From assembly GCA_003252295.1 (NCBI GenBank), contig QKEV01000002.1, forward strand, positions 196 to 64,195: DNA of 64,000 nt, written 5' to 3'. A program made the position numbers and the translations under genes. Under the pieces are notes generated by a model, which did no database searches, had not been told where the DNA came from, and saw only the letters and a list, made by a program, of their open reading frames with translations. How positions within the stretch are numbered: position 1 is the first letter of the stretch; every line of letters starts with the position of its first letter. The DNA is from a bacterium (GTDB lineage: Bacteria; Patescibacteriota; Minisyncoccia; Phycocordibacterales; UBA12088). Positions 2,953 through 41,150 of this stretch are shown here, piece by piece.

Positions 2953-3097
2953 TTTTTTAGCACCTAGAGCACTACCTTCAAGTAGTGCTCTAACTCTATA
3001 TAAATAGCCACCTTCTTGCATATTTTCCAGTTCTTGGTTAACTTTGCACTAGAACATACAAACGCAGAAGCAATTTTTTACCAAGAAGGAGAAAATC

Positions 3098-3811: not shown

Positions 3812-3910
3812 CTCTTTAAACCATACGGCACTGTCATCACTGACAGTGCCGTATTTATGTAAACAAAAACAGCTGCCGTTACACGGCAGCTGTTCACCTA
3901 CAAGCTGTAG

Positions 3911-4780: not shown

Positions 4781-4889
4781 AGTTCCTCCATACGTTGTTT
4801 TTTGTAGCAAGTTGAAAAAGTACAAACGCTTCCTCGCTTGACTCTAGCGTACCCTCATGGAAACGTCAACGGCAACTATAACAAACCCT

Positions 4890-6179: not shown

Positions 6180-6209
6180 ATATTACTTAAAACCTATACC
6201 TACTAGCTG

Positions 6210-7928
6210 CTACCTGTCCGGCGGCACTTCGTAGTAGTTTATCAAAAAGTCGACGAGATCCATAAACGGTGTCGTGAGCGTCTCTGACGCATACTGCGCA
6301 CCTTGTGGCTCTACGTGGTACAGAAAGATAAGGTACTCTGGATCATACGCTGGGAAGTACCCAAAGAATGAATGCAGGTACCTGTCAGTATAGTACCCTC
6401 GTTCACCAACCTTTGCTATCTGAGCCGTACCGGTCTTTGCAGCTATCGAGTACCTATCCTTCTTCACTGTTCCATTCCTAAGTGCGGTGTCTACCACCTC
6501 AACGAGCATTCTCGTGATCTCCTCTGAGGTCTCTGGTTTTAGTACCTGCTTCCTATCGTCTGGTGCCACCTTTGCTTCATCACCATCATCGTACTCAATG
6601 GTCTCCACAAAGTGCGGTGTCACAAGGTAGCCACCGTTCCCGAGTGCTGAGAGTGCGCGTACGGTGCCAATTGGCGTAAGGGCAATACCTTGTCCAAACG
6701 CAGCTGTCGCATACTCAACTTTTCTTGGACTGTTAAGGTTGTCGATGAGTCCATGTGCCTCAAACGGCAGATCAATACCGGTCTCTTCACCAAAACCGAA
6801 CTCTTTCATACGTTCACCTAAGAGCTCACCCCCAACCTCTTCTGCCACAAACGCCATACCAACGTTGAGTGATTGCTTGAGCACTTCCTGCATATCCACA
6901 ACACCACGTGCACGTCCATCATAGTTTCGTATCGTATAGGTATCGAGCTCTATTGATCCAGTGTCATCATAGGTGGTATCAGCAGTAACCGCACCCACAT
7001 CAAGACCAATAGCCATAGCTATCGGCTTTATGATTGAACCCATTTCGTAGACATCCTCAACAAACGGGTTACTAAAGACTGACACATCCTCCTCCTTAGA
7101 GTAGTTGTTTGGATCAAATGAAGGGAGTGCTGCCATAGCATAAATAGCACCTGTCTTTGGGTTGATAATGATCCCTCCTATACTCTTTGCATGCCACTCG
7201 TCCTCTGTTTGCAGGAGTGCACGTTCAAGTGCCTGCTGTACGGACGGGTCGACACTGGTCACGAGGTTTCCCTCACGCTTACGAACATCATTCTCCAGAA
7301 AGTCACGTGCATTCGTGAACACCTCAGCAAAGAAGTTCACATGCATCTCTTCGTCTTTACGGGTAAGTACCGAATCCCAGTACCGCTCCAAACCATACTG
7401 ACCTTTCTGAAAACGGCTTTCACCACCAAAACCAACATAGCCAAGGATATGACTTGCAAGCGAGCCACCTGGGTAGTAGCGCCACTGCTCACGGAAGAGC
7501 TGCACCCCTTCGATATCCTCTTTGCGTATAGCATCAGCTACATCTGTATCGATATGGTTGAGTATCTCCTCGTATGGATCATTTTTCTTTGATGCACGTG
7601 CAAGAAATGTTTCTTTATCAAACTCAATATACTTTGAGAGCGTACTGTACACCGCTTCTGGATCATCAATCTTGTCCGGTAGTATCGCAAGCAAAAAACC
7701 GCTTCGCAGTGTCGCTGATGCAATCTTGTTGCCATCTTTTTCTGTAAAGTAAATAGACCCTCGATCAAACACATCTGATGAGGATTGTATGTACTGGTTG
7801 TTCGCCATCTCACGATAGCGATCACCATGCATTATTTGTAAGTAGTACAAGCGTCCCAGTATCACCAGTGCAACAAAAATTACCACCCCGGCAATTATTC
7901 TTACACGGATAACAAACTGGTCACGCAT
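6210..7928 (-). CDS. ftsI: penicillin-binding protein 2 / FtsI-type transpeptidase
   Basis: N-terminal TM, SIIKP (SxxK), KTGTAQ (KTG) motifs. Confidence 0.9.
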   Translation of the reverse strand: MRDQFVIRVRIIAGVVIFVALVILGRLYYLQIMHGDRYREMANNQYIQSSSDVFDRGSIYFTEKDGNKIASATLRSGFLLAILPDKIDDPEAVYSTLSKYIEFDKETFLARASKKNDPYEEILNHIDTDVADAIRKEDIEGVQLFREQWRYYPGGSLASHILGYVGFGGESRFQKGQYGLERYWDSVLTRKDEEMHVNFFAEVFTNARDFLENDVRKREGNLVTSVDPSVQQALERALLQTEDEWHAKSIGGIIINPKTGAIYAMAALPSFDPNNYSKEEDVSVFSNPFVEDVYEMGSIIKPIAMAIGLDVGAVTADTTYDDTGSIELDTYTIRNYDGRARGVVDMQEVLKQSLNVGMAFVAEEVGGELLGERMKEFGFGEETGIDLPFEAHGLIDNLNSPRKVEYATAAFGQGIALTPIGTVRALSALGNGGYLVTPHFVETIEYDDGDEAKVAPDDRKQVLKPETSEEITRMLVEVVDTALRNGTVKKDRYSIAAKTGTAQIAKVGERGYYTDRYLHSFFGYFPAYDPEYLIFLYHVEPQGAQYASETLTTPFMDLVDFLINYYEVPPDR

Positions 7929-7934
7929 ACCACT

Positions 7935-8255
7935 CTAATCCTTACGTGTAAGTCGGTCGCCCAGTGGAGCAACTTCAACATACGCAGTTGGGGAAACAGC
8001 AACAAGTCCAAACTCCTCTGCTGTTTCTTCTGAAATATCACTAGAACGTGCAAAGTACTCTGCCTCAAGACTACTGATACGTGTCTCCACTTCACCAAGG
8101 GAAACCTGCATCTCCTGACGCAGTACCACCTGCACAACAGAGGTCATAATAAAGTATCCATACAGCACCAAAGCAGCACAAAAAAGGGCACTTAAAAACC
8201 AGAGTATTATGCGCTCATAACGAAAACATGTTGTTTTGGTGGGTTTACTGTTCAT
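7935..8255 (-). CDS. ftsL: cell division protein FtsL-like (single TM + coiled coil)
   Basis: Position between rsmH and ftsI; TM helix ILWFLSALFCAALVLYGYFIM followed by coiled-coil region. Confidence 0.6.
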   Translation of the reverse strand: MNSKPTKTTCFRYERIILWFLSALFCAALVLYGYFIMTSVVQVVLRQEMQVSLGEVETRISSLEAEYFARSSDISEETAEEFGLVAVSPTAYVEVAPLGDRLTRKD

Positions 8256-8298
8256 TGTGTTTAAAAAGTAACGACTATAAGTAATTGGTCATACGTCA

Positions 8299-9219
8299 CT
8301 ACTCCATTTCGAAACATCGAAGCTTTGCGCTTCTCGCTCGCCTGTTCGCCTTGCACTCTTCTCGTGTAGGTGCGATAGGTTTTTTGGTAACCCGCTTACC
8401 TATTCCCTCCTTCTCCCATGCAGCGAACATTTGCTTGACACTCCTGTCCTCGAGACTATGGAATGAAATAACTGCTATACGCCCCTTTGGGTTGAGCAGG
8501 TCTCTACTCTTCTCAAGTACCTCATGTAGTGCTCCTAACTCATCGTTTGCAGCCATACGTATCGCTTGAAATGTCTTTGTTGCCGGATGTACCCCTTTTC
8601 TTCCAGAGCTCACCGCCTGCACAATATCAGCAAGCTGCGTGGTCGTGTCTATCGAGTGCTCTTCACGTGCGGTAACAATCGCATGTGCGATCTTCCGTGA
8701 ACGATGCTCACCTCCAAAACCGTAGATAATATCAGCAAGTGTTTCTTCACTCCACTCATTCACAATGTGCCATGCAGTAAGCTCACCCTCTTTAGGTTCA
8801 CTTGCAAAAGTCATACCGAGCGGCTCTTCCCGCTGAAAACTGAAACCTCTGCCGCCTTTCTGATCGAGTTGGTCAGATGACAAACCAAGGTCGAGTAGTA
8901 TCTTATCGACTTTTTCATACCCTGCCTCGTGAACATGGGCGTCAATGTTTCTAAAGTTACCCTGTACGTAGTAAATACGTTCATCTCCCACCAGGAGCTC
9001 CCGTACCCGCTCAAGAGCATGTTTATCTGCATCAATGCCAATGTACCTTCCTTCGTCGCCTAATAGTTCAAGTATTTTTTTTGCATGACCTCCACCGCCG
9101 AGCGTACCATCAACAACCACATCTGTAGGTGTGAGTGAAAGTGTAGTAATGACGTCTTGTAAAAGAACCGAGGTATGCACGGTAGGCGTCGGACTTTGTT
9201 TGTTGTTTTCAGTATCCAT
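8299..9219 (-). CDS. rsmH: 16S rRNA (cytosine1402-N4)-methyltransferase
   Basis: VVDGTLGGGGHAK SAM-binding motif; dcw position after mraZ. Confidence 0.9.
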   Translation of the reverse strand: MDTENNKQSPTPTVHTSVLLQDVITTLSLTPTDVVVDGTLGGGGHAKKILELLGDEGRYIGIDADKHALERVRELLVGDERIYYVQGNFRNIDAHVHEAGYEKVDKILLDLGLSSDQLDQKGGRGFSFQREEPLGMTFASEPKEGELTAWHIVNEWSEETLADIIYGFGGEHRSRKIAHAIVTAREEHSIDTTTQLADIVQAVSSGRKGVHPATKTFQAIRMAANDELGALHEVLEKSRDLLNPKGRIAVISFHSLEDRSVKQMFAAWEKEGIGKRVTKKPIAPTREECKANRRARSAKLRCFEME

Positions 9220-12901: not shown

Positions 12902-12944
12902 CATAATAGCGCCACTCCTCGGAGTGGCGACTAACATAATTTTG

Positions 12945-13009
12945 GGTAGACGCGCACGACTCAAAACGTGCTTCGCAAGAGAGTGGGAGTTCGATTCTCC
13001 CCTCCGGCA
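12945..13009 (+). pseudogene. partial tandem duplicate of tRNA-Leu(CAA) (D-arm to 3' end; no matching 5' acceptor strand, 8-nt anticodon loop)
   Basis: GGTAGACGCGCACGACTCAAAA-CGTGC...GGGAGTTCGATTCTCCCCTCCGGCAC repeats the 3' two-thirds of the upstream tRNA with a 1-nt deletion; 5' strand CTCGGAG cannot pair with CTCCGGC. Confidence 0.7.
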
Positions 13010-13125
13010 CAATATAATGCTACTCCTTGGAGTGGCGTTATGTCATTCACCTTGCAAGCAATGTATTCGTTGACATTTTTATTTATAATGTTTTAATGTT
13101 GAAAAATACACAGGAGGGGTGCCGA

Positions 13126-13740
13126 ATGAAGATAGAGATTGATTCGATCAATGATGCACACAGTGTGACATCATCAGATGCCAGCAGGGTTGTGAGAGAT
13201 CTATGCATCTCCTACACAAGTATTAGACGTACATTCTTAGTTACATACAACGACATACATGAAGCATTTGAAGATGGTAACATCACTAGAATTGCAAAAC
13301 TCATGGAGTCAGTATTTGGACTGCCATCTGGTTTTGTTAAAAAAGTTGGATTTTCAGCAACCATCAGTGGTGGGAAATTTGATACCGCTCTAGCAGGTAT
13401 GTTATTTTCTCATCGTCATCCAGACAATTTACCCTTGGATGGTACTCTTCTTTTTAAGGACTCAAAGGAAGTTGTGTGCAGATATTCAGAAGCACTTGTT
13501 CTGCATACTATTGCACACGAGTACTCACATGCACGTTTACGACTCGATGGACACCTGTTGCGCAATTCAGAGTTTGCCACAGACATTCTTGCTATCATTG
13601 CAACTGGTACAACAGAAAGGTACCTAGAGAACATACACAAATCTGGTACGACTGTCGGTTACATACGTGAAGCTCTCTTTGAGGTGGTATTTACAGCTCT
13701 CGCAAAACATGCAGACACAATTTACCTACCTGCAGTATAG
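13126..13740 (+). CDS. hypothetical protein with HExxH motif (possible small zinc metallopeptidase)
   Basis: HTIAHEYSHARLRLDGH; RBS aggagggg before ATG at 13126. Confidence 0.45.
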   Translation: MKIEIDSINDAHSVTSSDASRVVRDLCISYTSIRRTFLVTYNDIHEAFEDGNITRIAKLMESVFGLPSGFVKKVGFSATISGGKFDTALAGMLFSHRHPDNLPLDGTLLFKDSKEVVCRYSEALVLHTIAHEYSHARLRLDGHLLRNSEFATDILAIIATGTTERYLENIHKSGTTVGYIREALFEVVFTALAKHADTIYLPAV

Positions 13741-13906
13741 GTACATCTTAAGGCCGTCACATATAGGTAGACGGCCTTAAACTTTTTTCAATGTTCTTGC
13801 CATAAACATACAACTTGTTATTCTGCAGGATAGAAAAGATGAAAGATTAGAGCTTGCCGTTTAACGCAAGAATTTAAACCAAAAGTATAAATTGGAGGAA
13901 GAAACA

Positions 13907-14383
13907 ATGGTTGCAATAATACAACCTAAGATTACGTTTTTAACCAAACAAAACTTGGTTGCGATGGTTGAAGCGAGTATCGAAAGTACCATGTTCCGAA
14001 ACATATACACCATAGTCAATGGAGAAAAACGAGATATTTTGGAAGATGGAAATCTTTCTTGTGCATACTACGTTTCCTGCATTCTACTTATCTTCAAACT
14101 CATAAATGAGCCACATGCTAAGGTAGCTGGACTCCTCAGAGATATGCTTGAAAATACATGGTTTAAAGCAAATGGAGATCCGTTACCGGGAGATGTGCTC
14201 ACCTGGGAACCAAAGTATTTCAAAAATAGTGGAAAGATTAGAGATCATGTTGGTTTTTTTCTCAAAGATAACATTGCGGTAAGTAACAATCCGATACTGA
14301 AGACTCCAACAACACATATGTATAACCTATATGATGGACGGCCTCTGAAAGCAGTTTATCGTCATCCTCTACTTGTTGCATAG
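13907..14383 (+). CDS. NlpC/P60- or CHAP-like cysteine peptidase (putative cell-wall hydrolase)
   Basis: EDGNLSCAYYVSCIL (Cys), PLPGDVLTWEP, RDHVGFFL (His) arranged like papain-fold PG hydrolases; RBS ggagga. Confidence 0.45.
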   Translation: MVAIIQPKITFLTKQNLVAMVEASIESTMFRNIYTIVNGEKRDILEDGNLSCAYYVSCILLIFKLINEPHAKVAGLLRDMLENTWFKANGDPLPGDVLTWEPKYFKNSGKIRDHVGFFLKDNIAVSNNPILKTPTTHMYNLYDGRPLKAVYRHPLLVA

Positions 14384-21060: not shown

Positions 21061-21202
21061 TCCTAGGTCCAAGTCACTAAGTATTTTTCATATCTTCAAA
21101 ATACTAAGTGCTTGCGACCCCACCTCGCGGTTCTTCGTTCCTCAGAACATCGCTGCGGTTTTCGAGTCGGGACACTTTGTGCGCAGGCACAAAGTTTGGA
21201 CC
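21061..21202 (-). mobile_element. family-A miniature insert between tRNA-Trp and its partial 3' duplicate
   Basis: Contains imperfect IR cactaagtatttt-N10-aaaatactaagtg then cttgcgacccc; homologous inserts at 39053..39194 and 52364..52537. Confidence 0.55.
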
Positions 21203-21234
21203 ACAACAAAACCGCCGAAAGGCGGTTTATGTTG
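21203..21234. terminator. 32-bp hairpin repeat copy 2 = bidirectional terminator immediately 3' of tRNA-Trp
   Basis: aaaccgcc-gaaa-ggcggttt stem-loop followed by T-run on both strands. Confidence 0.75.
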
Positions 21235-21623: not shown

Positions 21624-21706
21624 GCGTCGGTGACGGAGTGGTCAAACGTACTTGGCTGTAAACCAAGCGGCTTATGCCTACGGGGGTTCGAATCCCTCCC
21701 GGCGCA
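21624..21706 (+). tRNA. tRNA-Tyr(GUA), long variable arm
   Basis: GCGTCGG acceptor/CCGGCGC, anticodon arm CTTGG-CTGTAAA-CCAAG, T-arm GGGGGTTCGAATCCCTC. Confidence 0.85.
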
Positions 21707-21912
21707 CTACGGAAAATAACACTAACTTTTTGTTAGTGTTATTTTTTGTTTTTGCATGCCGAGGAGGGATTCGAACGAGAGGTGAGGAGGGATTGAAATA
21801 CGAAAAGTGTATTTCAAAGGGTGTCCTCCCGTGTAGGAGAGCAGTGAGCGATAGCGAACGCTGAGAACCGTGGGTTCTAAGAGCGCAGCGAGGTACGAGC
21901 GAGCAGTGAGGT
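21707..21912 (+). mobile_element. family-B miniature insert downstream of tRNA-Tyr (includes terminator hairpin aacactaac-ttttt-gttagtgtt at its start)
   Basis: Core gtaggagagcagtgagcgatagcgaacgctgagaaccgtgggttctaagagcgcagcgaggtacgagcgagcagtgag also at 34835..34905 and (reverse) 51031..51110; left end gaggagggattcgaacg is an inverted T-arm-like segment. Confidence 0.55.
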
Positions 21913-21927
21913 TCCCTCCCGGCGCAC
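21910..21927 (+). repeat. partial duplicate of tRNA-Tyr 3' end (att-like)
   Basis: ggttccctcccggcgcac vs tRNA 3' end ggttcgaatccctcccggcgcac. Confidence 0.7.
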
Positions 21928-22066
21928 AAACCAAAAATAGCTTTATTCTGTAAGGCTATTTTTGATTTGGAGGAATGTAGTTAGTTCGACACACCTTGAC
22001 ATATACAATATTTGTTCTACTATAGACATCAGGAAACCTGAAACTTACAACTCTTTGGAGGACAAC

Positions 22067-23095
22067 ATGAAAGGCGTTGAACTGCGAACTCTCACTGAAA
22101 CACTACATCCCGTAGAAGCAAGGTATATAGAAAAACCTTGTCACACAATATCAAAAGAAAGGATTGCTGAATGCGTCCCTATAGCAGAATTAGAGTACTT
22201 CACACAAAACTTAGTTACTACCAACTTCTTTAAGGAGTATCATCGTTACCCGCTCCGCATGCTAGAGAAGTTCACATTTGACGAGTTGTGCAAACTCAGG
22301 TACTCGTCAAGCATTATGATGCATGACTCTGTCAGAAAACTGTTTAAAACTGATGCACAGTATGAAGTAGTACGTAAAATTTCTAGCTCCATGTGGCGCT
22401 GGGGTATGAACAGTGGTATTTGGAATGAAGTGGTCACGGCATACAATAACCTGCGTGGCTTCACCATTAATCTACCAGATTTTGAGATACGGCTTGATTA
22501 CACAACTTGGTATAACGAATGTGGTTACTCAAAGTATAGTTGCACATTCCTTGATGGCGTCTTCGCGTATCTGGTCTACTACAAACAAAAGCATGTAATG
22601 ACCATCGGCTTTTCAATCATCGGAGGTAAAGGTGTCCTTATCCAGCAAGCGCAATCTACTCAACGTAAAGGTAATCGGTTTTTGTATAAACTACCGACCA
22701 ATAGAATGGAGTTTGTTGTTGATTTGTTCATGCAACATTTCCCTGACTATAAGCTTTACATGGTTGACGGCAGCGAACTTGCGGATCAATCTCTAAACAG
22801 TTACCGTAGAGAACTTTCTCGATTAACTGAGTGGGTTAAAACCCATCGTGACTTATACAATGACCCAGACTCAAAATACTTCGATAGAGAAAGCTTGAAA
22901 AGACACCAAGACGAGCAAGAGGAATACCGTAAATGCATTAGGCATCTTGAGGGAGACAGGTCTCGACTCAAGTCTTTTTACCGAAACGTTGGTAAATACC
23001 ATCTTTCTACGACCATAAATGTAAATGGTCTGACACACTACGGCATTGTATCGCCAGAGCAAGTGTCACTACTTCAATCATTTGCCACCGTCTAG
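22067..23095 (+). CDS. hypothetical protein (island gene 1; ORF-track start 21962, RBS ggagga before ATG 22067)
   Basis: ORF + strong terminator gccaccg-N10-cggtggc TTTTGTTTT at ~23105-23140. Confidence 0.45.
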   Translation: MKGVELRTLTETLHPVEARYIEKPCHTISKERIAECVPIAELEYFTQNLVTTNFFKEYHRYPLRMLEKFTFDELCKLRYSSSIMMHDSVRKLFKTDAQYEVVRKISSSMWRWGMNSGIWNEVVTAYNNLRGFTINLPDFEIRLDYTTWYNECGYSKYSCTFLDGVFAYLVYYKQKHVMTIGFSIIGGKGVLIQQAQSTQRKGNRFLYKLPTNRMEFVVDLFMQHFPDYKLYMVDGSELADQSLNSYRRELSRLTEWVKTHRDLYNDPDSKYFDRESLKRHQDEQEEYRKCIRHLEGDRSRLKSFYRNVGKYHLSTTINVNGLTHYGIVSPEQVSLLQSFATV

Positions 23096-23149
23096 TTTTT
23101 TGATTAATTGCCACCGAAAGCCACTCCGGTGGCTTTTGTTTTACACAAT

Positions 23150-23183
23150 ACACCCTTGTCGAACCAACTCTATCTCGGCGCAC
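23150..23183 (+). repeat. degenerate tRNA-Tyr 3'-end-like repeat (att-like boundary)
   Basis: ttgtcgaaccaactctatctcggcgcaca resembles GGTTCGAATCCCTCCCGGCGCAC; second copy at 23812..23845; T-arm-only copy at ~24779. Confidence 0.5.
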
Positions 23184-23264
23184 ATCTTGACAATACCCTG
23201 TTTATAGGGTATTGTTTTGTTGAATTGTACACTGTCGTTAACATCAACCTGGAGGAATATTTAA

Positions 23265-23738
23265 ATGACAATTTCAAAATCTGATACGAAGCACCTTGAA
23301 TCCAACACCACACTATATCTTGAAGGAAAGGTTCCTAAAGATTATGTTTGTTGTGACTGTGGCGCAAAGGGTGTCAAGCTATGGCACGACTGCTACACTC
23401 ATGACAAACACCAACCTCTACGATGTCTGCCTTGTACATGCTCTGAACAAGGCAAGGTTCGTACACCCACTGAAGACGGTTGTTCACTTTACGAAGAGAA
23501 ACGTCACATGTACAGAACTGCGGGCATGGAGTCCAATCGCTGGAAGCAATATAATCCTGATGAAGGCCTGCCGTCAGATGCAGTTGAAACAAAAGTTTGG
23601 CGCAATGAGACAGATCAAATCGGCTGGTTTGTTCCCGCTGTACCGACTGAGAAAAATGATGCGTATTGGGCTTACACTGCCGTTCCAGCAGAAGCATGTG
23701 AATGGTGGTACAACTTACCATTTTCTAACACTCGATAA
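23265..23738 (+). CDS. Cys-rich hypothetical protein (island gene 2)
   Basis: CCDCG...CLPCTC; RBS ggagga; followed by hairpin gaccgc-N12-gcggtc TTTTCT. Confidence 0.4.
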   Translation: MTISKSDTKHLESNTTLYLEGKVPKDYVCCDCGAKGVKLWHDCYTHDKHQPLRCLPCTCSEQGKVRTPTEDGCSLYEEKRHMYRTAGMESNRWKQYNPDEGLPSDAVETKVWRNETDQIGWFVPAVPTEKNDAYWAYTAVPAEACEWWYNLPFSNTR

Positions 23739-23811
23739 CTCTAACTTCGAAAGTTGATGAAATTTAAGACCGCATGGTTCGCCCAGCGGTCTTTTCTATA
23801 CAAAGCATTTT

Positions 23812-23845
23812 TGTTGAACAAACTCTATCTCGGCGCACTTTTGAA
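23812..23845 (+). repeat. degenerate tRNA-Tyr 3'-end-like repeat, copy 2
   Basis: ttgttgaacaaactctatctcggcgcactt. Confidence 0.5.
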
Positions 23846-23856
23846 AATAGCAAATA

Positions 23857-24750
23857 CTACGGTATAGATATTTGACGTTTTTCTATAAACGTCAACGTAC
23901 ACTCGTCTCCATCTTCATACGAATTAGAATCATACACTCCATATTCAAGTGTATGATCATCCAACCACTCAAAGTCGTATGCCCCAGCATATGAACATGG
24001 TGACTGAACTGTCTCATGTACCCCTAAAGTCTCTTCTTTAACCACCGCATCAAGATATACATCTACAATGTATACAGTTTCAAGGTAACCATCACCACTT
24101 TCAACCTCATCTAGTTTTGCAATATACTGACCGGTAATTGATTGTACCTCACCACAAGAGGCACAGTAACCGTATTTATTTTCTTTTAGTTGCAACGTGT
24201 CGAATTCAAACCTCGCTATCCCGCAACACGCACTAGAACCAGGTATAGATGTAGTAAAAAACAAACTGTTACCATCCTTGTACATGTTGGGGTAGCTAAG
24301 CTTTTTCTTCGGATCAAACTGAGACTGGTATAAAGCCGTTAGGTCATCTATGACCATTTGCTGTTGTTGAGAATTTCCATCTACACTTCTCAACCTGTAG
24401 CAAAACTGCTCATAAGAACGCCCAAACGCATCATGGTCTGCACAAACATAGCTTTCAATGTATACATTACCAGAAGTTGAGTAAAATATTTCCCTCACCT
24501 CTCCAACAGTTCCAGTACTTACTTGTTGCTCCTCATTCAAAATAGGTTCAGGTTCAGGTTCAACCTCCACAATCTTCTCTACCTCCACCACCTTCTCAGG
24601 TGCATACGTATACCCAATCCAACCACCAATGAACGGCAGTGCAATAAACAACACCATTGCGAGAAGCTTTGATAGAAGAGTTACTTCGGTAAATACATTT
24701 GTTTTTGCAACTTGTTTAACTGCTTCAGGTTGAGGACTTCCCTGTTCCAT
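23857..24750 (-). CDS. membrane-anchored extracellular hypothetical protein (island gene 3)
   Basis: N-terminal TM LLAMVLFIALPFIGGWIGY then PEPEP linker and Cys-containing ectodomain. Confidence 0.45.
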   Translation of the reverse strand: MEQGSPQPEAVKQVAKTNVFTEVTLLSKLLAMVLFIALPFIGGWIGYTYAPEKVVEVEKIVEVEPEPEPILNEEQQVSTGTVGEVREIFYSTSGNVYIESYVCADHDAFGRSYEQFCYRLRSVDGNSQQQQMVIDDLTALYQSQFDPKKKLSYPNMYKDGNSLFFTTSIPGSSACCGIARFEFDTLQLKENKYGYCASCGEVQSITGQYIAKLDEVESGDGYLETVYIVDVYLDAVVKEETLGVHETVQSPCSYAGAYDFEWLDDHTLEYGVYDSNSYEDGDECTLTFIEKRQISIP

Positions 24751-24910
24751 AGTATGTAAATCATATCACGCCACACCATTGTCGAACCAACTCCCTTCTA
24801 GTACATAAATCACCAACCACTTTACAAACATTATTTTTATTGTATTTTAAACGGTAGTTTTTTGTACCAAACAAATACGTTCTATACAACTTGAACCAAG
24901 GAGGTTCCAA

Positions 24911-25150
24911 ATGCCTGAAACAACATTGCCTGCTATTCACAACGCACTCAAGAAAACTGTGAGCGATGGATTAGAGACTATCCTTGAAATTGAAGGATTG
25001 AGGTGGTCACCAAGAGGATTCATCACTTGGTACCACAGTGATACATCTGAAGCGGTTAGAATGTCAGTCATAAATGAAAGTGGGGAGAGAATTATCTATA
25101 CCTTCTCAGCAACCACTGTCCTCGGTGTAGGTATTGTAGATAAAAAATAG
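24911..25150 (+). CDS. hypothetical protein
   Basis: ORF with RBS aaggagg. Confidence 0.35.
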   Translation: MPETTLPAIHNALKKTVSDGLETILEIEGLRWSPRGFITWYHSDTSEAVRMSVINESGERIIYTFSATTVLGVGIVDKK

Positions 25151-25168
25151 TTACATACAACAACTATT

Positions 25169-25987
25169 TTGGAGGTTACAGCAATGATACTTTCATTAGT
25201 TTTTGCAGCTGGTTTGAGCTTTTCTGGTGTACAGTTTGAAACAGCAAAGTTACATGACGGAGAAGTTCCAGAGCCAAAAGTGAAGGATCCAATGTACTAC
25301 ATCTGCGCAGTTGAGAACATTGCCCCTCGTCATTTTCTAAAGTGGGGATACATTGAACCAGTTGAGAAAAGAGTAGAGGTTCAAGAGCACACACTCGTTA
25401 ACCCAGACAAGCAAGCAAGGGTAAAAGAGATCATCACCTCAACGCCGTACAATTACCAAAACCCCGATTACCCAAATGAGATGTATCGCACATACATTAA
25501 ATACAGGTTTGAGGTTGATGGCATGAAGTGTGGTTTTGAAGCAGTATACATACCTGCAAAGTATAATGAGTGGGCTTTTAAGGTTCATGGTGGTGGACTC
25601 ATGCCGATAAGATACCTGCCACAGAAACAAAGCGACCCTGTATACAACACATGTGTTGAGGGTAACATCCTCCCAAAAGATTTTCTACAGTGGGGAGACG
25701 TTACACCAACCCGTGATGCATCTGGAATACAAAAGCAAGTGCTCACGAACCCAGATTCAAACGCTAAAGTGGTACACATAACCACCTCAACACCTTTTGA
25801 GTATCAGCCAAACGATCTCAAACTGTGGGAGCAAGATCTGTACCTCACTCGCACTACGTATACCTTTAGTGTAAACGGTACAAAGTGCGGATTTGAAGCA
25901 ATCTACCTACCAAAGGAGTACTGTGAGTGGGACGGTGTACCATTCCGTGATGAGCTCATAAAGCTCATATACATACCTCAACAGTAA
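25169..25987 (+). CDS. secreted hypothetical protein with two ~130-aa internal repeats
   Basis: Signal peptide; repeat HFLKWGYIEPV...GMKCGFEAVYIPAKYNEW vs DFLQWGDVTPT...GTKCGFEAIYLPKEYCEW; terminator accgcccag-N7-ctgggcggt. Confidence 0.5.
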   Translation: MEVTAMILSLVFAAGLSFSGVQFETAKLHDGEVPEPKVKDPMYYICAVENIAPRHFLKWGYIEPVEKRVEVQEHTLVNPDKQARVKEIITSTPYNYQNPDYPNEMYRTYIKYRFEVDGMKCGFEAVYIPAKYNEWAFKVHGGGLMPIRYLPQKQSDPVYNTCVEGNILPKDFLQWGDVTPTRDASGIQKQVLTNPDSNAKVVHITTSTPFEYQPNDLKLWEQDLYLTRTTYTFSVNGTKCGFEAIYLPKEYCEWDGVPFRDELIKLIYIPQQ

Positions 25988-26112
25988 CTATCGTTCTTCT
26001 CGCACCTTACCGCCCAGACCAACTGGGCGGTAATTCTTTACAACACCCAACACTATGCTATCTTCGGGATAGAACACAAACCATCGTCAAAACAAGAAAC
26101 GGAGGATTGAAA

Positions 26113-26679
26113 ATGAAAAAGGATAAAATTCTGGAAAATCGTAAGGCAATTCTTGATTTACTGAAACAAGATCCTGATATAAAGCATACTGCTCTTGTTG
26201 ACGTGTTTCAGGTCTTGGTTGATGGCAATTTTTCTGAGACTGAAGATCCTCAGGAAAAAGGCGAAGAATTCCTCGCTAAAATGTCTGGTATCCACCAGGC
26301 ACTGCATACGGTAAATATGCACCTGTACAACATGAAGAAGCAACTGGAAGCTCAATGCACGGAAGAAGAGTTAATGAGTGGAAACCTGCCACCTGAAATA
26401 ATGCAAGGTATCACTAAGGCATTCAGGGCACAATTATTCATACTTGCACTTTCCGACCACCTCGTGACCGAACAACACGAACATGAATTTCTCAGTGAGC
26501 CAGGAATGAATATAGAGTACAGAAAAGGAGATGTGATTACTATTTCTATGCTCTCTCTGGCAGAGGCTTTCACCAGAGCCATCATACTTAACGAGGATGG
26601 TATCCATCAAGAGCAAGAAAATACAGTATTGGACGATCTACTCACAGGCATTAGCCTAACTAGGACAGGAAACGCATAA
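26113..26679 (+). CDS. hypothetical protein (ORF-track uses TTG at 26107)
   Basis: ORF, RBS ggagga. Confidence 0.4.
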   Translation: MKKDKILENRKAILDLLKQDPDIKHTALVDVFQVLVDGNFSETEDPQEKGEEFLAKMSGIHQALHTVNMHLYNMKKQLEAQCTEEELMSGNLPPEIMQGITKAFRAQLFILALSDHLVTEQHEHEFLSEPGMNIEYRKGDVITISMLSLAEAFTRAIILNEDGIHQEQENTVLDDLLTGISLTRTGNA

Positions 26680-26809
26680 CAGTTCGTTACAGCAAATTGA
26701 TTGCCCCATGTATCAACATGGGGCAATTTCTATTTGACCCTTCCCTTGAGACATGGTACATAGTAGTACTAGAACGTACGTAAAACATAAACTTCTTGGG
26801 GGAGATACT

Positions 26810-27310
26810 ATGGAGCTACGTGAAGCGCAAAGAATCGTTTCGTTGTTTTGGAACACATCTGAACTCGCGAAACTACTTGCTGAAAACGCAAGGTTGCGAA
26901 AAATCTTTGACCATATCTGTAACAAAGAACCATTTCTTGAAGAATCACCGCGTGGTAGCGGACGGATACCGATTTGTAGAGAACTGCAACAGTACTATGA
27001 AGAGTTTGCTGAAACGTGTATAAAAAAGTTTACTGAAAATAGAGGGGGGACAATGTATATCTCAGAAGCACGGAAACTTATCGCACCATACCTTGCTAAC
27101 CCGGCAATAATAAAAGCTATCCGCACAAACTTGCATCCTGCACTCACAAGATCCCACAATGCCATTATTGAGGAATTGGTGCAGATCTACGGAAAACCAG
27201 AAAGCAGAGACGAAAAACCAATCAGTGTAAAACTTACGAAAAACTACAACTTGTTCAAATACACTTCTGATTTGTTCCTTGATAGAGCCACTGGAGCACA
27301 CATACATTAG
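26810..27310 (+). CDS. hypothetical protein (ORF-track start 26753)
   Basis: ORF; terminator aacccgccac-tctc-gtggcgggtt ATTTGTTTTT at 27338-27372. Confidence 0.4.
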   Translation: MELREAQRIVSLFWNTSELAKLLAENARLRKIFDHICNKEPFLEESPRGSGRIPICRELQQYYEEFAETCIKKFTENRGGTMYISEARKLIAPYLANPAIIKAIRTNLHPALTRSHNAIIEELVQIYGKPESRDEKPISVKLTKNYNLFKYTSDLFLDRATGAHIH

Positions 27311-27375
27311 GAACACAGTATGTACTGCACATAAAACAACCCGCCACTCTCGTGGCGGGTTATTTGTTTTTCAAA

Positions 27376-30078
27376 CTACATGTTTGCTATTTTCTTTGGC
27401 TGGATACTACTCTTCCTTGGTCTTCCTCTTCCCTTCTTCACATCGAAAGCAACCTCATCATTCTTCATACTGACCGTTACCACACCACCCTCCTGCACAC
27501 CACTTGTGACAAGCATGGATGCAACCGGTGTGAGTATCTTGTTCTGAATGAGCCGCTTCATTGGTCGTGCTCCGTAGTGTGGATCATACCCTTCTTTTGC
27601 TAACCACTCGACAACATCATCTCCAACATTGAGCGCTATCTCCTTATGCTTGAGACGCTCCACTACGATATTTATCTGTAGTTTTGCAATCTCACGCACC
27701 ACCTCAGGGGTGAGAATGTTAAAGAGTATTATTTCATCAAGACGGTTTAAGAATTCCGGACGGAAGTGATCTTTCAAAGAATCCATCACCTTACCCTTTG
27801 CGTGTGAATAGTCACTCGTATCAGAAGTGTCAACACTGAAGCCCATACGTCCCATTCTGTCGATATGCTCAGCACCGATGTTTGAAGTGAGAATAATGAT
27901 GGAGTTCTTGAAGTTTACCTTTCGTCCTTTGGCATCCGTAAGATGACCATTGTCGAGTACCTGAAGGAGAATGTTAAACACCTCAGGGTGCGCCTTCTCA
28001 ATCTCATCAAAGAGGAGTACTGAGTATGGTCGATGTCGCACTATCTCTGTAAGGTTTCCTCCCTCCTCATGCCCCACGTATCCGGCAGGTGCACCAATAA
28101 TCTTTGAAACACTATGTCGCTCCATGTACTCACTCATATCCACTCGCACGAGCGCATTGTCATTATCGAACATAAACTCAGCAAGTGCTTTTGAGAGCTC
28201 AGTTTTACCAACTCCTGTTGGACCAAGGAGCAAGAATGAGCCAATAGGTCTGTTTGGATCTGCTATACCGGTACGACTCCTACGTACCGCATCAGCTATC
28301 TTCTGTACTGCCTCACTTTGACCTATTACTCGCTTTTCAAGTGCTTCCTCCATACGAGCTAGCTTATGTGCCTCCTCTTCTATCATTCTGGTTACAGGAA
28401 CACCGGTCCACTTAGAGACCACATCTGCTATCTCAACCTCGGTTATCTCTTCTTTCAAGATGCTGCGCTTTTTCTGCAATTTCTTCATACGCTTCACGCT
28501 CACATCAAGCTCTTTTTCTAGAGCAGGAATGGTACCGTAACGGATCTCTGCCGCCTTACTCAAGTCAGCTACTGCTTCGGCACTCTCTGCCTCAACACGC
28601 TTCTGCTCAAGCTCTTTTTTAATGCGTTTTATGTCACCGAGCGTATCTTTCTCATTGGTCCATTTAAGCTCTATTTCTCGGGTTTGTTCCTTGAGTTTTG
28701 ATATCTCACTATCTATCGTATCAATGCGTGTCTGGATCTTCTTACCCTGTGCTGTGGTTTTTGAGGTGCTGTCCAGATCCTTACTAAGTGCCTGCTTCTC
28801 TATCTCAAGACGCATCACGTTTCTATGGGTCTCCTCAAGCTCTGGTGGTTTATTCTCAAGAGAAATACGCAGTGCTGATGCTGCTTCATCTATAAGGTCA
28901 ATTGCCTTGTCTGGCAGGTACCTATCTGAAAGGTAGCGCGCTGAAAGTGTTACCGCAGCAACGATCGCATCATCTGTCACACGTACACCATGGTAGAGCT
29001 CGTAACGCTCACGTAGTCCTCGTAAAATAGCGATACCATCCTCCACAGAAGGTTCGTTCACATAAATTGGCTGGAAACGTCGTGTGAGTGCTGCATCCTT
29101 CTCAAAATGTTTCTGATACTCCTTGATGGTAGTAGCACCAATAACACGAAGCTCACCACGCGCGAGCGCCGGCTTGAGCATGTTTGCAGCATCAATGGAA
29201 CCCTCAGCTGCACCAGCTCCTACAATTGTGTGTATTTCATCGATAAAAAGAATAATATTGCCAGAAGAACGTTCTATCTCACGCATGACACCCTTTAGGC
29301 GCTCTTCAAACTCACCACGATACTTGGTACCAGCAACGAGCATACCAAGATCAAGTGAAACAAGATCCTTACCCTTCAAGCTCTCAGGAACATCCCCTGC
29401 TGCCATTCGCACAGCAAGTCCTTCTGCTATTGCTGTTTTTCCAACTCCTGCCTCACCGATGAGGATAGGATTGTTTTTTGTACGTCGGGAAATGATCTGT
29501 ATGATGCGTGTGATCTCAGTGTCTCGTCCAATAACCGGATCAAGTTTGTTTTCCTTAGCAAGAGAGGTGAGTGACCGTGTGTACTTTGCAAGTGCGCGTG
29601 AACGCTGTGGCTGTACACCCTCCGTATTCTCAGTATCTCGTGCCTCTTTGAGAGCAACAAGCACTGTTTCTCGATCAAACTGAAACTTCTGCAAGACGCC
29701 GCTCGCACCTCCTGGTGTATCAAGGATAGCTAAGAAAAGATGTTCAGTACCAACAAACTGATCATTAAGTGTATTTGCAACCTGACCAGCATTTTCTATA
29801 ACCTGTGCAAGTTCTGGAGTGAGGTACAGCTGGTATGACGGTGAAAGCACCGTTGCATTATCAGGTGACTCAAGTGCGTCAAGAATACTGTCCGTGAGGG
29901 CAATAACATCGACATTAAGTCGTTCAAGTAGTGAGAAAATAACCCCCTCCTCCTGTAGTACAAGAGCAGCAAGCAGGTGTAGCGGATTAACATGGTTCTG
30001 ACCACGTTCTACTGCTAGTTCATGTGAGCGCCGGACTGCCTCCTTTGCTTTTGGTGTGAAGTTTTGAAACGGTACCAT
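27376..30078 (-). CDS. clpB: ATP-dependent chaperone ClpB
   Basis: Clp_N repeats, two AAA+ modules ([15 protein letters not shown]; [15 protein letters not shown]), middle coiled coil. Confidence 0.95.
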
Positions 30079-34746: not shown

Positions 34747-34912
34747 CAAGTTTTGAACAAAGTGAAAAACTTTGTTTGGGGTGGAAATCGAACGTTGGAA
34801 GGGGTCGGGAAACCTGTAGGTTTCCCGTATAGGAGAGCAGTGAACGACAGTGAACGCTGAGAACCGTGGGTTCTTAGAGAGCGACGTAAGGAGCGAGTGA
34901 GATAGCAAAGCG
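34747..34912 (+). mobile_element. family-B miniature insert downstream of tRNA-Leu(UAA)
   Basis: gtataggagagcagtgaacgacagtgaacgctgagaaccgtgggttcttagagagcgacgtaaggagcgagtgag; left end ggggtggaaatcgaacg. Confidence 0.55.
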
Positions 34913-34927
34913 TCCCGCCCCGGGCAC
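34913..34927 (+). repeat. partial duplicate of tRNA-Leu(UAA) 3' end (att-like)
   Basis: cccgccccgggcaca identical to tRNA 3' end. Confidence 0.7.
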
Positions 34928-39038: not shown

Positions 39039-39052
39039 TGCCGGGGAGAGGA
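39039..39052 (-). repeat. partial duplicate of tRNA-Leu(UAG) 3' end plus 12 nt of its flank (att-like)
   Basis: tttatttgttttgtgccggggagagga at 39025-39052 vs cttatttgttttgtgccggggagaggacttgaacc at the tRNA. Confidence 0.7.
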
Positions 39053-39194
39053 ATCTTTCTCATTACATGAGCAGTATGGGTTTCCAGTATTTTGATTCGC
39101 AAAGCTCTCAAAATACTAGGCAACCCTTTCAAGTCCTCTCCTCGGTCAAAACAACAATCGCGGAATGCTCAACACATTCCGCTTATTTGTTTTG
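39053..39194 (-). mobile_element. family-A miniature insert between tRNA-Leu(UAG) and its partial duplicate
   Basis: ccagtattttga-N12-tcaaaatactagg caaccc, same architecture as Trp and Ser-GGA copies. Confidence 0.55.
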
Positions 39195-39426: not shown

Positions 39427-39564
39427 CTAAAAACACTTACGTCCCGATGCGATGAGCATTGGGGCGTTAGTGCTTTTCAGACCACTAGGGCTCGAAAGGG
39501 TTACCTGATATTTTGCAACTGAAAGGTGTAAAAATATCGGAAACCCATACTGTTCTGTAAGAAA
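39427..39564 (+). mobile_element. family-C insert between tRNA-Lys and its partial duplicate
   Basis: Unique 138-bp sequence followed by partial tRNA copy. Confidence 0.45.
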
Positions 39565-39579
39565 GAGTCCTAGTGGGTG
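39565..39579 (+). repeat. partial duplicate of tRNA-Lys 3' end (att-like)
   Basis: gagtcctagtgggtg vs tRNA cgagtcctagtgggcgg; followed by terminator aaaagcacc-ttaata-ggtgctttt. Confidence 0.65.
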
Positions 39580-39622
39580 AACAAGGAGATAAAAGCACCT
39601 ATTAAGGTGCTTTTATTATTTT

Positions 39623-39922
39623 TTAAAGATTGATTGGTGTGATCTCTTTTGGAATATCAGAGCTACTAACACCAATTGTACGCAAACCTATTTCGAGTAT
39701 TGCATATACTGATACCATAATAGTCATTCCTATGAGACCGTACATGATATGCCGCTTTCCATCGGCACGTTTAGATTCATCACCAGCATTTAAAATAAAT
39801 ACCATGAGACCATACATCATGTAAAGCAATGCACCTGCAAAGATGATTGCAATAATAGGATTTATGATCTCAGTAGTTACCTTTTCTACAAAAACCTTAA
39901 CCTCATCTGGAACTGGTTGCAT
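39623..39922 (-). CDS. TrbC/VirB2-like two-TM pilin-family mini-protein, paralog 1 (ORF-track start 40117 rejected)
   Basis: IIAIIFAGALLYMMYGLMVFILNAGDESKRADGKRHIMYGLIGMTIMVSVYAILEI shares F-x-AGD-x5-GK-x4-WG-x-IGL consensus with five upstream paralogs. Confidence 0.55.
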   Translation of the reverse strand: MQPVPDEVKVFVEKVTTEIINPIIAIIFAGALLYMMYGLMVFILNAGDESKRADGKRHIMYGLIGMTIMVSVYAILEIGLRTIGVSSSDIPKEITPINL

Positions 39923-39963
39923 GTTCTCATTACTATATAGCCATACTTTTTTTACAGCAATAG

Positions 39964-40012
39964 ACACTATACACAAAATGCGACAGATAATGTCGCATTT
40001 TGTGTATAGTGT
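39964..40012. promoter_or_regulatory. 22-bp perfect inverted repeat with 5-nt spacer between pilin paralogs 2 and 1
   Basis: acactatacacaaaatgcgaca-gataa-tgtcgcattttgtgtatagtgt. Confidence 0.7.
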
Positions 40013-40032
40013 TGTAAAAACAATTACTACGC

Positions 40033-40386
40033 CTACGGTGTTGGACCAGTTGGGAAAGTTGTTTGCGTTGATGCTGTAACACCAAATATGTTCTGCATAA
40101 CTGCAATAATTCCCCAAATAGAAACAATACAGAACAATGCAACTACACCCCAGATCATTCTCCTCTTTCCTTCATCTTTCGCACCCTCGTCTCCAGAAGC
40201 TAAGATGAACTGCGCAAGTCCCCAAATGAACACAAGCAGTGCAAGTGAGACAGCTATTGGGATCAATGCATTAACAATCTTACCAAGAGATGTAACGATA
40301 TTGGTGAACCATGCAAAATTTTGCGCAAGAGCAATCCCTGGAAGAAGAACACTTAGTGAAGGTAACACCTTTAAAGCTTTTTTCAT
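40033..40386 (-). CDS. TrbC/VirB2-like pilin-family mini-protein, paralog 2 (signal peptide)
   Basis: MKKALKVLPSLSVLLPGIALA signal; LVFIWGLAQFILASGDEGAKDEGKRRMIWGVVALF. Confidence 0.55.
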   Translation of the reverse strand: MKKALKVLPSLSVLLPGIALAQNFAWFTNIVTSLGKIVNALIPIAVSLALLVFIWGLAQFILASGDEGAKDEGKRRMIWGVVALFCIVSIWGIIAVMQNIFGVTASTQTTFPTGPTP

Positions 40387-40482
40387 ATAAACTATTTATA
40401 AATATTCTAATAATATGTTCAATATCACTACTGAAAGCATAGCACATTCGCCGCAATTTTAGCACTACACGTGTGGATAATG

Positions 40483-40848
40483 CTACCAAGTAATGATTGG
40501 TGTAGGGTGATCATTACTTGATGGTTGAGATACCCCGATTATATTCATGAGCAATCCAACAATACCCCACACGCTTATCAAAACGACTAAACCAATAAGT
40601 CCCCAAAAAATCCTCTTCTTTCCCTCCTCACGTGCTTTTGCTTGTTCAGTGTCAGTAAGCCCCATACCATAAAGCATACGAACCACTCCCCAGAGAAAGA
40701 CTAGTAGGCTTGCACTTATGAGAATACGTACCAGCATACCCATAATACTGGCACTGAAAAGACTGTCGATAATACTCCCAACAGTTTGAGCATGTGTACT
40801 GAAGGGTACCAAAAGAAAAAGGAATAATACTGTAAACCTGTATATCAT
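40483..40848 (-). CDS. TrbC/VirB2-like pilin-family mini-protein, paralog 3 (signal peptide)
   Basis: LLVFLWGVVRMLYGMGLTDTEQAKAREEGKKRIFWGLIGLVV. Confidence 0.55.
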   Translation of the reverse strand: MIYRFTVLFLFLLVPFSTHAQTVGSIIDSLFSASIMGMLVRILISASLLVFLWGVVRMLYGMGLTDTEQAKAREEGKKRIFWGLIGLVVLISVWGIVGLLMNIIGVSQPSSNDHPTPIITW

Positions 40849-41150
40849 GTAAAAAATGTATTCTTTAAGATTTCAATCAAACCCCAAATTGCAACCATCA
40901 CAAAGAGTGATATGGTTCCCCATATCATTAGTTGTTTACCCTGCTCCCTACTTTGATCATCACCTGCTGTTGTAATAAAGCGCACAAGACCAAAAAGAAA
41001 GAATATAAAGGCGAAAGCCGTAACGATATATACAAACTTATTTATCAACTCAACAACCCCTGCAGCAAAATTCTTGAAGGACTGCCCATATACAACTACT
41101 GGCAGCAACACAAGAAAAAAAAATAATGTACATTGTTTGACCTTAATCAT
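40845..41150 (-). CDS. TrbC/VirB2-like pilin-family mini-protein, paralog 4 (signal peptide)
   Basis: IFFLFGLVRFITTAGDDQSREQGKQLMIWGTISLFV; 4-bp overlap with paralog 3. Confidence 0.55.
   Translation of the reverse strand: MIKVKQCTLFFFLVLLPVVVYGQSFKNFAAGVVELINKFVYIVTAFAFIFFLFGLVRFITTAGDDQSREQGKQLMIWGTISLFVMVAIWGLIEILKNTFFT

Follow-up and report, generated by a model that had tools for sequence, protein, structure and literature searches.

The tRNA-Tyr/clpB locus

We analysed a 64,000-nt stretch of contig QKEV01000002.1 (the window, on which all coordinates are based) and compared it with related loci, designated by L-numbers. The subject is an islet of small genes directly 3' of a tRNA-Tyr gene, which begins at the tRNA end (21707), extends to clpB and contains copies of the tRNA 3' end between its genes. 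Homologues of the window proteins came from the "Parcubacteria group", the "Patescibacteria group", Yonathbacteria and similar metagenome-assembled genomes, and the gene content is housekeeping. Judging from these protein sequences, the host is a Parcubacteria/Paceibacteria-type bacterium of the candidate phyla radiation (CPR). The initial annotation had described three genes for hypothetical proteins, each next to a degenerate tRNA-Tyr-end repeat. The three open reading frames (ORFs) are present as described, and the region forms the half nearest the tRNA of a lineage-specific, 5.7-kb islet that extends from tRNA-Tyr to clpB.

The anchor of the islet is tRNA-Tyr(GTA) (21624..21707, + strand; ARAGORN; Rfam tRNA, 58.8 bits), the last 15 nt of which (TCCCTCCCGGCGCAC) constitute the "core" found copied downstream. 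Adjoining the tRNA is a non-coding unit of 220 nt with an interior of type A (21708..21927, + strand). It contains a hairpin terminator (21709-21749), a structured interior and, between the two, an inverted and imperfect copy of the tRNA-Tyr 3' end (~21757-21778, GCCGAGGAGGGATTCGAAC), and is closed by an exact 15-nt direct copy of the tRNA end at 21913-21927. This exact copy lies 4 nt short of the start of the region first annotated and was outside that finding. The module that comes next, "b" (21927..21991, + strand), consists of a terminator-like hairpin (21927-21969) and GGAATGTAGTTAGTTCGACA, the last 13 nt of which are an inverted form of the arm shared by the repeats R1, R2 and R3.

P1 (342 aa; 22067..23095, + strand) is preceded by a promoter-like site (TTGACA, 16 nt, TACTAT; 21996..22023, + strand; consensus scan only) and followed by a terminator hairpin read from the sequence (GCCACCG..CGGTGGC, then a T-run; 23110..23142, + strand). 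R1 (23139..23183, + strand) is composed of the arm TTTTACACAATACACCCTTGTCGAACC and an 18-nt block, AACTCTATCTCGGCGCAC, which is a decayed tRNA-Tyr core. The P2 cassette (23184..23820, + strand), bounded by perfect 18-bp repeats, contains a promoter-like site (23187-23215, + strand; consensus scan), the gene for the Cys-rich protein P2 (157 aa; 23265-23738, + strand) and a terminator with a GC-rich hairpin and a T-run (23768-23796, + strand; GACCGCATGGTTCGCCCAGCGGTC). R2 (23794..23838, + strand) joins the arm TTCTATACAAAGCATTTTTGTTGAACA to an 18-nt block identical to that of R1. The terminator hairpins of P1 and P2 stand directly ahead of R1 and R2, respectively. The gene for the membrane-anchored protein P3 (297 aa; 23857..24750) is on the − strand, and R3 (24762..24806, + strand) consists of the arm CACACCATTGTCGAACCAACT and a heavily decayed core, CCCTTCTAGTAC. 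The consensus scan returned 14 promoter-like sites in the window, against 13.7 expected from shuffles.

The distal islet (24911..27361, + strand) encodes P4 to P7 (79, 267, 190 and 185 aa, all hypothetical; ORFs up to 27310) and ends in a hairpin shared with the 3' end of clpB (27338-27361); no R-like sites were found in it. clpB itself (27376..30078, − strand) forms the conserved distal border of the variable region.

Origin of the R sites

The repeats quoted in the initial annotation were located as given: TTGTCGAACCAACTCTATCTCGGCGCACA at 23156-23184, TTGTTGAACAAACTCTATCTCGGCGCACTT at 23811-23840 and TGTCGAACCAACT at 24780-24792. R1, R2 and R3 form one family. Each has a common arm (..ACAC..TTGTCGAACCAACT; R3 shares TGTCGAACCAACT) and, behind it, a worn copy of the final 14-15 nt of tRNA-Tyr. 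Over 45 nt, R1 and R2 have 80% identity, and both contain the exact 18-mer AACTCTATCTCGGCGCAC, which has two matches in the window against 0.09 expected; two matches were reached in 0 of 100 shuffles. Compared with the tRNA-Tyr core, R1 and R2 each agree at only 12 of 15 positions. In an alignment of the tRNA end, the unit copy, R1, R2, R3 and the corresponding site of L210, the majority core was identical to the tRNA core. The four R-type sites have a common arm, which the tRNA does not have.

The orthologous sites retain more of the tRNA sequence. Upstream of the P3 homologue, L210 has ATTGTCAAACCAACTCCCTCCCAACAC, with the core kept as CCCTCCCAACAC, and at the orthologous R3 site of L216 the sequence ..TATCAAACCAAC is followed by the exact tRNA-Tyr end, TCCCTCCCGGCGCA. 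The repeats descend from the tRNA-Tyr 3' end, as had been proposed, since the consensus core is the tRNA core and the R arm is joined to an exact core in L216; for the same reasons, the resemblance of R1 and R2 to tRNA-Tyr is not due to chance. Apart from the orthologous site, neither the rest of the 64-kb window nor 2.06 Mb of related loci contained the R arm. The repeats are thus specific to this locus, and the refuting case named in the initial annotation, a widespread promoter or operator motif, does not apply.

Variability of the locus among relatives

With the 3' ends of tRNA-Tyr and clpB facing each other, the gap between them measured ~300 nt in L078, 540 nt in L036, 1030 nt in L033, 1340 nt in L126, 1740 nt in L073, 3140 nt in L092 and 5670 nt in the window. 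L126, whose ClpB is 82% identical in amino acid sequence to that of the window, has three unrelated small genes in the gap. No homologues of P1 to P7 were found in ~200 related loci, save P3 in L210 and L216, where the homologues (48-50% identity) occupy the same place downstream of tRNA-Tyr. Comparison of the window with L078, L036, L126, L210 and L216 showed that the segments vary in presence and absence and that the locus is an insertion hot-spot, with a content that changes completely from one relative to another.

L210 is fully syntenic with the window (xseA, xseB, rpmG, tRNA-Trp, tRNA-Tyr, clpB, aminotransferase), and its clpB is 75% identical at the nucleotide level. L210 and L216 are close relatives with a P3 block that is 91% identical, yet they differ by three indels, each of which is bounded by copies of the tRNA-Tyr end. 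The first consists of two non-coding units adjoining the tRNA, present only in L210; the second, of ~980 nt and present only in L216, contains several units and a 130-aa gene with its own promoter and terminator; the third is a ~270-nt "b" module after the R3 core, present only in L210. The "b" module of the window is homologous to this ~270-nt module 3' of the R3 core in L210, which is missing from L216.

tRNA-Tyr and clpB are neighbours in many Patescibacteria classes, in two arrangements. In one, clpB is followed by a co-directional tRNA-Tyr (L052, L087, L046, L118, L018 and L080 in our comparison); in the other, the tRNA 3' end faces the clpB 3' end (the window, L078, L036, L033, L073, L092, L126 and L210).

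Probable traces of recombination at the cores

The identity between R1 and R2 was 18/18 in the core block, 18/27 in the arm and ~15/40 in the suffix, so that the perfect block stands between flanks of ~40-67% identity. The chance of 18 consecutive matches at a background identity of ~67% is ~7e-4. From this pattern, we read the sharp block as the trace of a duplicated crossover core and not of a decayed segmental duplication. P2 is flanked on both sides by att-like perfect 18-bp repeats, with no recombination gene inside. R1 and R2 also have three derived changes in common relative to the tRNA (CCCTCCC to CTATCTC). These shared changes, together with a perfect 18-bp block amid diverged flanks, indicate that the P2 segment entered, or brought with it, an already diverged copy.

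The P1 segment has a unit-like layout, with a terminator, an inverted arm (21979-21991), the cargo, and the arm and core at R1. The inverted arm of P1 comprises 13 nt only (21979-21991 versus 23157-23169), and none was clear for P2.

Three junctions were mosaic. In L210, the R arm and core are followed by the "b" suffix (terminator hairpin and GAAATGTAGTTA); at 21913-21990 in the window, the end of the unit interior and the core are followed by the same "b" suffix as in L210; and at R3 of the window, the R arm and core are followed by a right side unlike that of L210. Such mosaics are as expected of site-specific recombination.

Cargo proteins and their contexts in other genomes

Searches of P1 to P7 against Pfam and PHROGs gave no significant match. 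The initial description of the cargo as a Cys-rich, a membrane-anchored and a secreted repeat protein needs one correction: the Cys-rich protein is P2, and P1 is predicted to be soluble and is not a secreted repeat protein. In P3, a hydrophobic anchor at the N-terminus precedes an acidic linker of the VEVE/PEPE type.

In other genomes, P2 homologues likewise behave as cargo of islets. In six of the seven contexts, the P2-family gene lies 0.6-4.4 kb downstream of a tRNA or tmRNA 3' end, L213 being the sole context with no tRNA within the DNA examined, and in at least three contexts it is flanked by copies of the local RNA 3' end. In Yonathbacteria L208/L209, smpB and tmRNA are followed by three tandem units, a tmRNA-end copy, a promoter-like site, the P2 homologue, a terminator and, finally, another tmRNA-end copy. 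The P2 homologue of L206 lies between tmRNA-end copies 2.8 kb past the tmRNA, and those of L215 and L217-219 lie 0.8 and 4.4 kb past the tmRNA. The P2 homologue of L214 shares a 7-kb island with a rolling-circle Rep gene, and exact copies of the tRNA-Ser(TGA) end form the borders of this island.

The L214 island (1406-8545) encodes a rolling-circle initiator (PF23343), the P2 homologue, a DUF2726 protein and an AAA_15/AAA_21 ATPase, which hints at small rolling-circle (single-stranded) replicons as vehicles. The P2-holding tmRNA islets of L206 (6031-9090) and L217 (6603-7271) also carry defence-type genes, encoding AbiEii and its partner, an AEP primase-helicase and an Mrr-like restriction endonuclease. 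The recurrence of P2 next to genes for defence (AbiE, Mrr and OLD-like ATPases) in islets at tmRNA and tRNA genes suggests that it takes part in interactions with phages or hosts. The P2 terminator at 23768-23796 is almost identical to the sequence at 4826-4852 of L208, whereas the P2 proteins are only ~60% identical; the better conservation of the terminator than of the coding region suggests that the hairpin belongs to the functional ends of the cassette.

The P1 family has more than 145 homologues with 31-52% identity; it is conserved, restricted to Parcubacteria-type genomes and has no Pfam model. Its invariant residues include a Q..Q..(G)NR motif. The AlphaFold model of P1 is very confident (pLDDT 94), with an N-domain made of helices, a core of beta-sheet and a long hairpin of the coiled-coil type. 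Foldseek returned only sub-threshold matches to GNAT acetyltransferases, and a profile search of the PDB with the P1 family yielded only coiled-coil noise. On the basis of the model, P1 may tentatively be described as a soluble protein with a GNAT-like core. P1 is not a recombinase; its structural neighbours were only GNAT acetyltransferases with non-significant E-values. No conserved synteny was found in the contexts of the P1 homologues in L002-L005.

Non-coding units downstream of tRNAs

The 220-nt unit behind tRNA-Tyr is one of several. Eight of the ten tRNAs in the window (Leu-CAA, Trp, Tyr, Leu-TAA, Leu-TAG, Lys, Ser-CGA and Ser-GGA) have a copy of their own last 14-25 nt located 110-290 nt downstream. 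The units lie at 12903-13010 (Leu-CAA), 21070-21233 (−), 21708-21927 (Tyr), 34748-34927, 39040-39193 (−), 39428-39585, 51030-51318 (−) and 52345-52536 (−). All but that of Leu-CAA have the same anatomy, in which the tRNA end is followed by a short spacer, a terminator hairpin, an imperfect inverted copy, a structured interior and a direct copy. The inverted copy mimics the 5' strands of the acceptor and the T-stem, and in many units it is split by a 9-bp hairpin with a CUGC-type loop. The covariation count for this hairpin was formally strong and, with the hairpins selected and aligned by hand, only suggestive. The pairing between the inverted and the terminal copy was matched by at most 4 of 100 shuffles in 16 of 37 tabulated units and by none in 10 of the 37.

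The interiors belong to a small number of families that are reused behind several RNA genes; in the window, type A lies behind Tyr, Leu-TAA and Ser-CGA, type B behind Trp and Ser-GGA, and type C behind Leu-TAG and Lys. An unbiased nhmmer search with the type-B interior gave 19 matches in the 2.06 Mb, 17 of them no more than 700 nt downstream of a same-strand tRNA-Ser, tRNA-Tyr, tRNA-Trp or tmRNA. The units are widespread among Patescibacteria; they were seen in Saccharibacteria, Paceibacteria and Kaiserbacteria, among others, and in some cases two to five of them stand in tandem. By a strict criterion, they occur behind 7 of 34 tRNAs in CPR loci versus 0 of 11 in non-CPR loci, in a set of loci chosen by ClpB similarity. 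Rfam 15 identified only tRNAs and RNase P in the window and eight unit-rich loci, with no family for the units, and we found no prior description of them in the searchable literature. RNAalifold was uninformative on the type-A and type-B alignments, which comprise too few sequences. Scans of viral contigs with the type-A 21-mer, the R 18-mer and P2 gave no matches, and P1 matched one 608-kb "viral" contig that is probably a CPR genome.

Several known kinds of element were considered for the units and set aside: miniature inverted-repeat transposable elements with fixed terminal repeats, as the unit ends change with the tRNA; remnants of IS110/IS1111 bridge RNAs or TnpB omega-RNAs, as there is no associated gene and the guide logic misfits a duplicated target; split or permuted tRNAs, as the upstream tRNA is complete; and self-cleaving viroid-like RNAs, as there was no ribozyme match.

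The Leu-CAA unit (12903-13010) is atypical, being a 66-nt partial tRNA duplicate (D-arm to 3' end) with a terminator duplicate and a period of ~108 nt. Past it lie two hypothetical genes without a Pfam match (13027-13740 and 13892-14383), possibly another small islet. A cluster of small ORFs past the tRNA-Lys unit (39623-41150, − strand), one with a type IV secretion pilin domain (PF18895), may also be a tRNA-flank islet. In the Kaiserbacteria locus L034, type-B unit copies at 495-684 and 2875-3064 surround a cargo with HicA/HicB toxin-antitoxin genes. Ahead of the second copy is the 3' end of another tRNA-like sequence, which is degenerate, and masked runs of N follow both copies. The window also encodes the RNase P RNA (bacterial class A, 125 bits; 49187-49583, − strand), which makes tRNA-like 5' processing of the units at least possible.

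The units may be miniature non-autonomous integrative modules, i.e. portable att sites; they may be hairpin recombination sites, by analogy with attC or the CTX-phage attP; or they may be small RNAs that resemble tRNA minihelices. The same sites seem to be used by the islet's gene cassettes. A broader proposal, which we put forward only tentatively and regard as rather doubtful, is that Patescibacteria have a tRNA/tmRNA-anchored cassette system, analogous but unrelated to integrons, with the 110-290-nt modules as portable attachment sites, or else that the units represent a new class of tRNA-processed small RNA. In such a cassette system, the inverted copy would let single-stranded DNA or RNA fold into a tRNA-minihelix-like hairpin, a few interior families would have been re-targeted to many tRNAs and to tmRNA, and the one-gene cassettes would ride the same sites. 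A trans-acting enzyme would carry out the recombination, possibly on folded single strands as in the case of attC or the CTX-phage attP. The tRNA-linked units are the part of the case most likely to prove new.

A model for the islet and its alternatives

We consider it probable that cassettes without a recombinase gene were inserted repeatedly at the tRNA-Tyr end and at copies of it, duplicating the core each time, and that deletion and decay followed. We infer integration from the anatomy of the islet and its comparison with relatives, and likewise a trans-acting recombinase, circular intermediates and the order of events. The islet would then be a row of small modules that all terminate in a tRNA-Tyr 3'-end copy, the first being the 220-nt non-coding unit with its exact copy and the next the three one-gene cassettes P1, P2 and P3, each with its own promoter-like and terminator-like signals. 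An R site would represent a shared arm, a core derived from the tRNA-Tyr end and a terminator-like arm. Small cassettes, circular or otherwise recombinogenic, would be inserted by a site-specific recombinase acting in trans, with the segment from the T-loop to the 3' end of tRNA-Tyr, or an older copy of it, as the target, and later recombination between core copies would remove modules. As to the order, P3/R3 would be an old resident, given that L210 and L216 have it in the same position; P1/R1 would have come later; and P2 would then have entered an already diverged R site, which would account for its perfect 18-bp repeat. The non-coding unit adjoins the tRNA and has an intact core.

The tandem accretion at tRNA-Tyr suggested in the initial annotation is borne out in outline by the tRNA-end copies, the hot-spot and the core-bounded indels; the segments, however, are one-gene cassettes of 0.65-1.3 kb without an integrase rather than classical integrative elements. 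The accompanying idea that older copies were pushed outward does not hold in its strict form, since P2 used or carried a diverged copy and not the tRNA.

Several observations weigh against this model. Neither the islet nor the 30 ORFs of the window that were scanned revealed a recombinase; P1 to P7 had no Pfam or PHROG match, and 20 further window ORFs, searched against Pfam, were housekeeping or without assignment. A jackhmmer search of all ORFs of the related loci, seeded with an E. coli XerD sequence, detected tyrosine recombinases in six loci but no XerD-like ORF beside any CPR unit array. Those directly beside tRNA-Tyr were in L025, L050 and L055 (Actinomycetota and Planctomycetota, with an identical tRNA-Tyr end), and in Saccharibacteria L064 one was 1.4 kb from tRNA-Tyr. 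The comparison of composition with the core genome did not set the islet apart, with GC contents of 0.41-0.45 for the islet genes and 0.43-0.48 for the core, and GC3 likewise did not distinguish the islet from the core genes. One in three P1-family contexts was not tRNA-linked, and no flanking copy of the tRNA-Gln end was found beyond the P1-family gene in L002; P1 may therefore not have arrived as a cassette. In addition, the core-bounded indels could be deletions between short direct repeats by ordinary recombination instead of insertions, and the order of modules differs between the window and L210, so that the history of events is not unique.

Four other explanations were weighed against repeated cassette insertion. 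The R sites might be the worn right ends of tandem non-coding units, with the genes interposed by unrelated rearrangement or present as earlier residents, in which case the repeats would not delimit the segments that carry genes. Units do form tandem arrays with progressively decayed ends (three in L210, at least four in L216, and others in L047, L081, L031 and L087), the R arm TTGTCGAACCAACT is loosely similar to the end of the type-B unit (..CTYGTGACCGAATCC), and in L210 a type-B unit ends in the decayed core to the left of P3. However, the P2 segment has a perfect 18-bp flanking repeat although the arms have diverged, P2-family genes are flanked by local tRNA- or tmRNA-end copies in other genomes and at other RNA genes, and one of the core-bounded indels that separate L210 from L216 contains a 130-aa gene. 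These three observations tie genes and repeats together and leave this explanation unlikely.

It is also improbable that the same architecture arose by general RecA-type homologous recombination through arms or units of 70-200 nt common to the incoming DNA and the resident copy, with no dedicated recombinase. Consistent with such a route, no recombinase gene was found in our scans, the 2.2-kb cargo of L034 (HicAB and others) lies between nearly identical unit copies of at least 190 nt, and in L206 the core and a 70-nt suffix are repeated with ~90% identity on either side of three genes. However, the identity between R1 and R2 is limited to 18 bp (40-67% around it), which is too short for efficient RecA action and typical of a crossover core, and the duplicated segment always runs from the T-loop to the discriminator base, with the same tRNA endpoint.

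We regard as very improbable the view that the repeats are a regulatory module (a terminator, an operator or UP element, and a -35 box) duplicated along with promoters, with the likeness to tRNA irrelevant. R1 does stand immediately 5' of a promoter-like site, TTGACA/TATTGT, and R2 is upstream of TTGAAA; R3 falls within the P3 promoter region, where it is conserved in L210 and L216 as well. Against this, no other intergenic region of the window has the motif, and neither do 2 Mb of related loci; the promoter-like site that follows R2 is directed into the 3' end of a gene on the opposite strand; in L216, the orthologue carries an exact tRNA end; and promoter-like sites are no commoner than in shuffles. 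A chance likeness of the 8-mer CGGCGCAC and TCGAA to the tRNA, for which it could be said that R1 and R2 agree with no more than 12 of the 15 core positions and, as mutual copies, count as a single event, has a negligible probability and is refuted by a family consensus equal to the tRNA core and by orthologues that keep progressively more of it, up to the exact match in L216.

Comparison with known systems

The islet resembles the tycheposon islands of Prochlorococcus, which lie at the 3' side of tRNAs and consist of elements separated by partial tRNAs (bioRxiv 10.1101/2020.12.28.424599). In those islands, newer elements push older ones inward, decayed partial tRNAs are scattered, and variability peaks beside the tRNA; a tycheposon contains several genes, among them one for a tyrosine recombinase of its own and often genes for replication (bioRxiv 10.1101/2020.12.28.424599). 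The window islet matches this accretion process overall. However, its modules are single-gene or non-coding and 0.15-1.3 kb long, no recombinase was seen, and a decayed secondary site appears to have been used once. The islet also shares with classical tRNA-targeting prophages and islands the same target segment, from the T-loop to the 3' end, duplicated as a direct repeat. In contrast to such islands, the CPR loci with units or cassettes show no tyrosine integrase gene beside the tRNA.

Cis-mobilisable elements (CIMEs), described in the accretion of integrative and conjugative elements (ICEs) and integrative and mobilisable elements in Streptococcus, are att-flanked, have no recombination genes, are presumed to be mobilised in trans and stand in tandem at one att site in a tRNA or protein gene. 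They are derived from ICEs and several kb long, and the cognate ICE with its integrase is known in the same species. P2 is similarly placed between att-like repeats without a recombination gene, as are its analogues in L208, L206 and L214. Unlike the case of CIMEs, no autonomous partner was identified for the window cassettes in the 64 kb of the genome covered.

Integron arrays are ordered rows of one-gene cassettes with a single insertion point, each cassette ending in a recombination site of variable sequence and conserved architecture. The islet likewise consists of ordered one-gene cassettes, and the imperfect inverted repeat of the units could fold in an attC-like manner. However, no IntI, attI or Pc was found in the window ORFs scanned, the repeated site is a copy of a tRNA 3' end, the R sites are without a clear attC-like hairpin, and the cassettes are not promoterless but have their own promoter-like sites and terminator hairpins. 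With IntI, attI, Pc and promoterless cassettes all wanting, the islet falls outside the definition of an integron, though it is similar in logic.

Significance for Patescibacteria

Patescibacteria have tiny genomes with few recognisable mobile elements, and their route of gene exchange is an open question. The locus and its relatives offer a concrete route, in which the 3' ends of tRNA and tmRNA genes stack one-gene cassettes and abundant small non-coding modules with no integrase in cis. If a dedicated enzyme or a mechanism based on RNA or single-stranded DNA hairpins does operate at these sites, they would represent a new gene-capture system in a major and poorly understood branch of the bacteria, and could also serve to mark the flexible genes of Patescibacteria. 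Even if this does not prove true, the islet is a clean small-scale case of the known accretion of tRNA islands.

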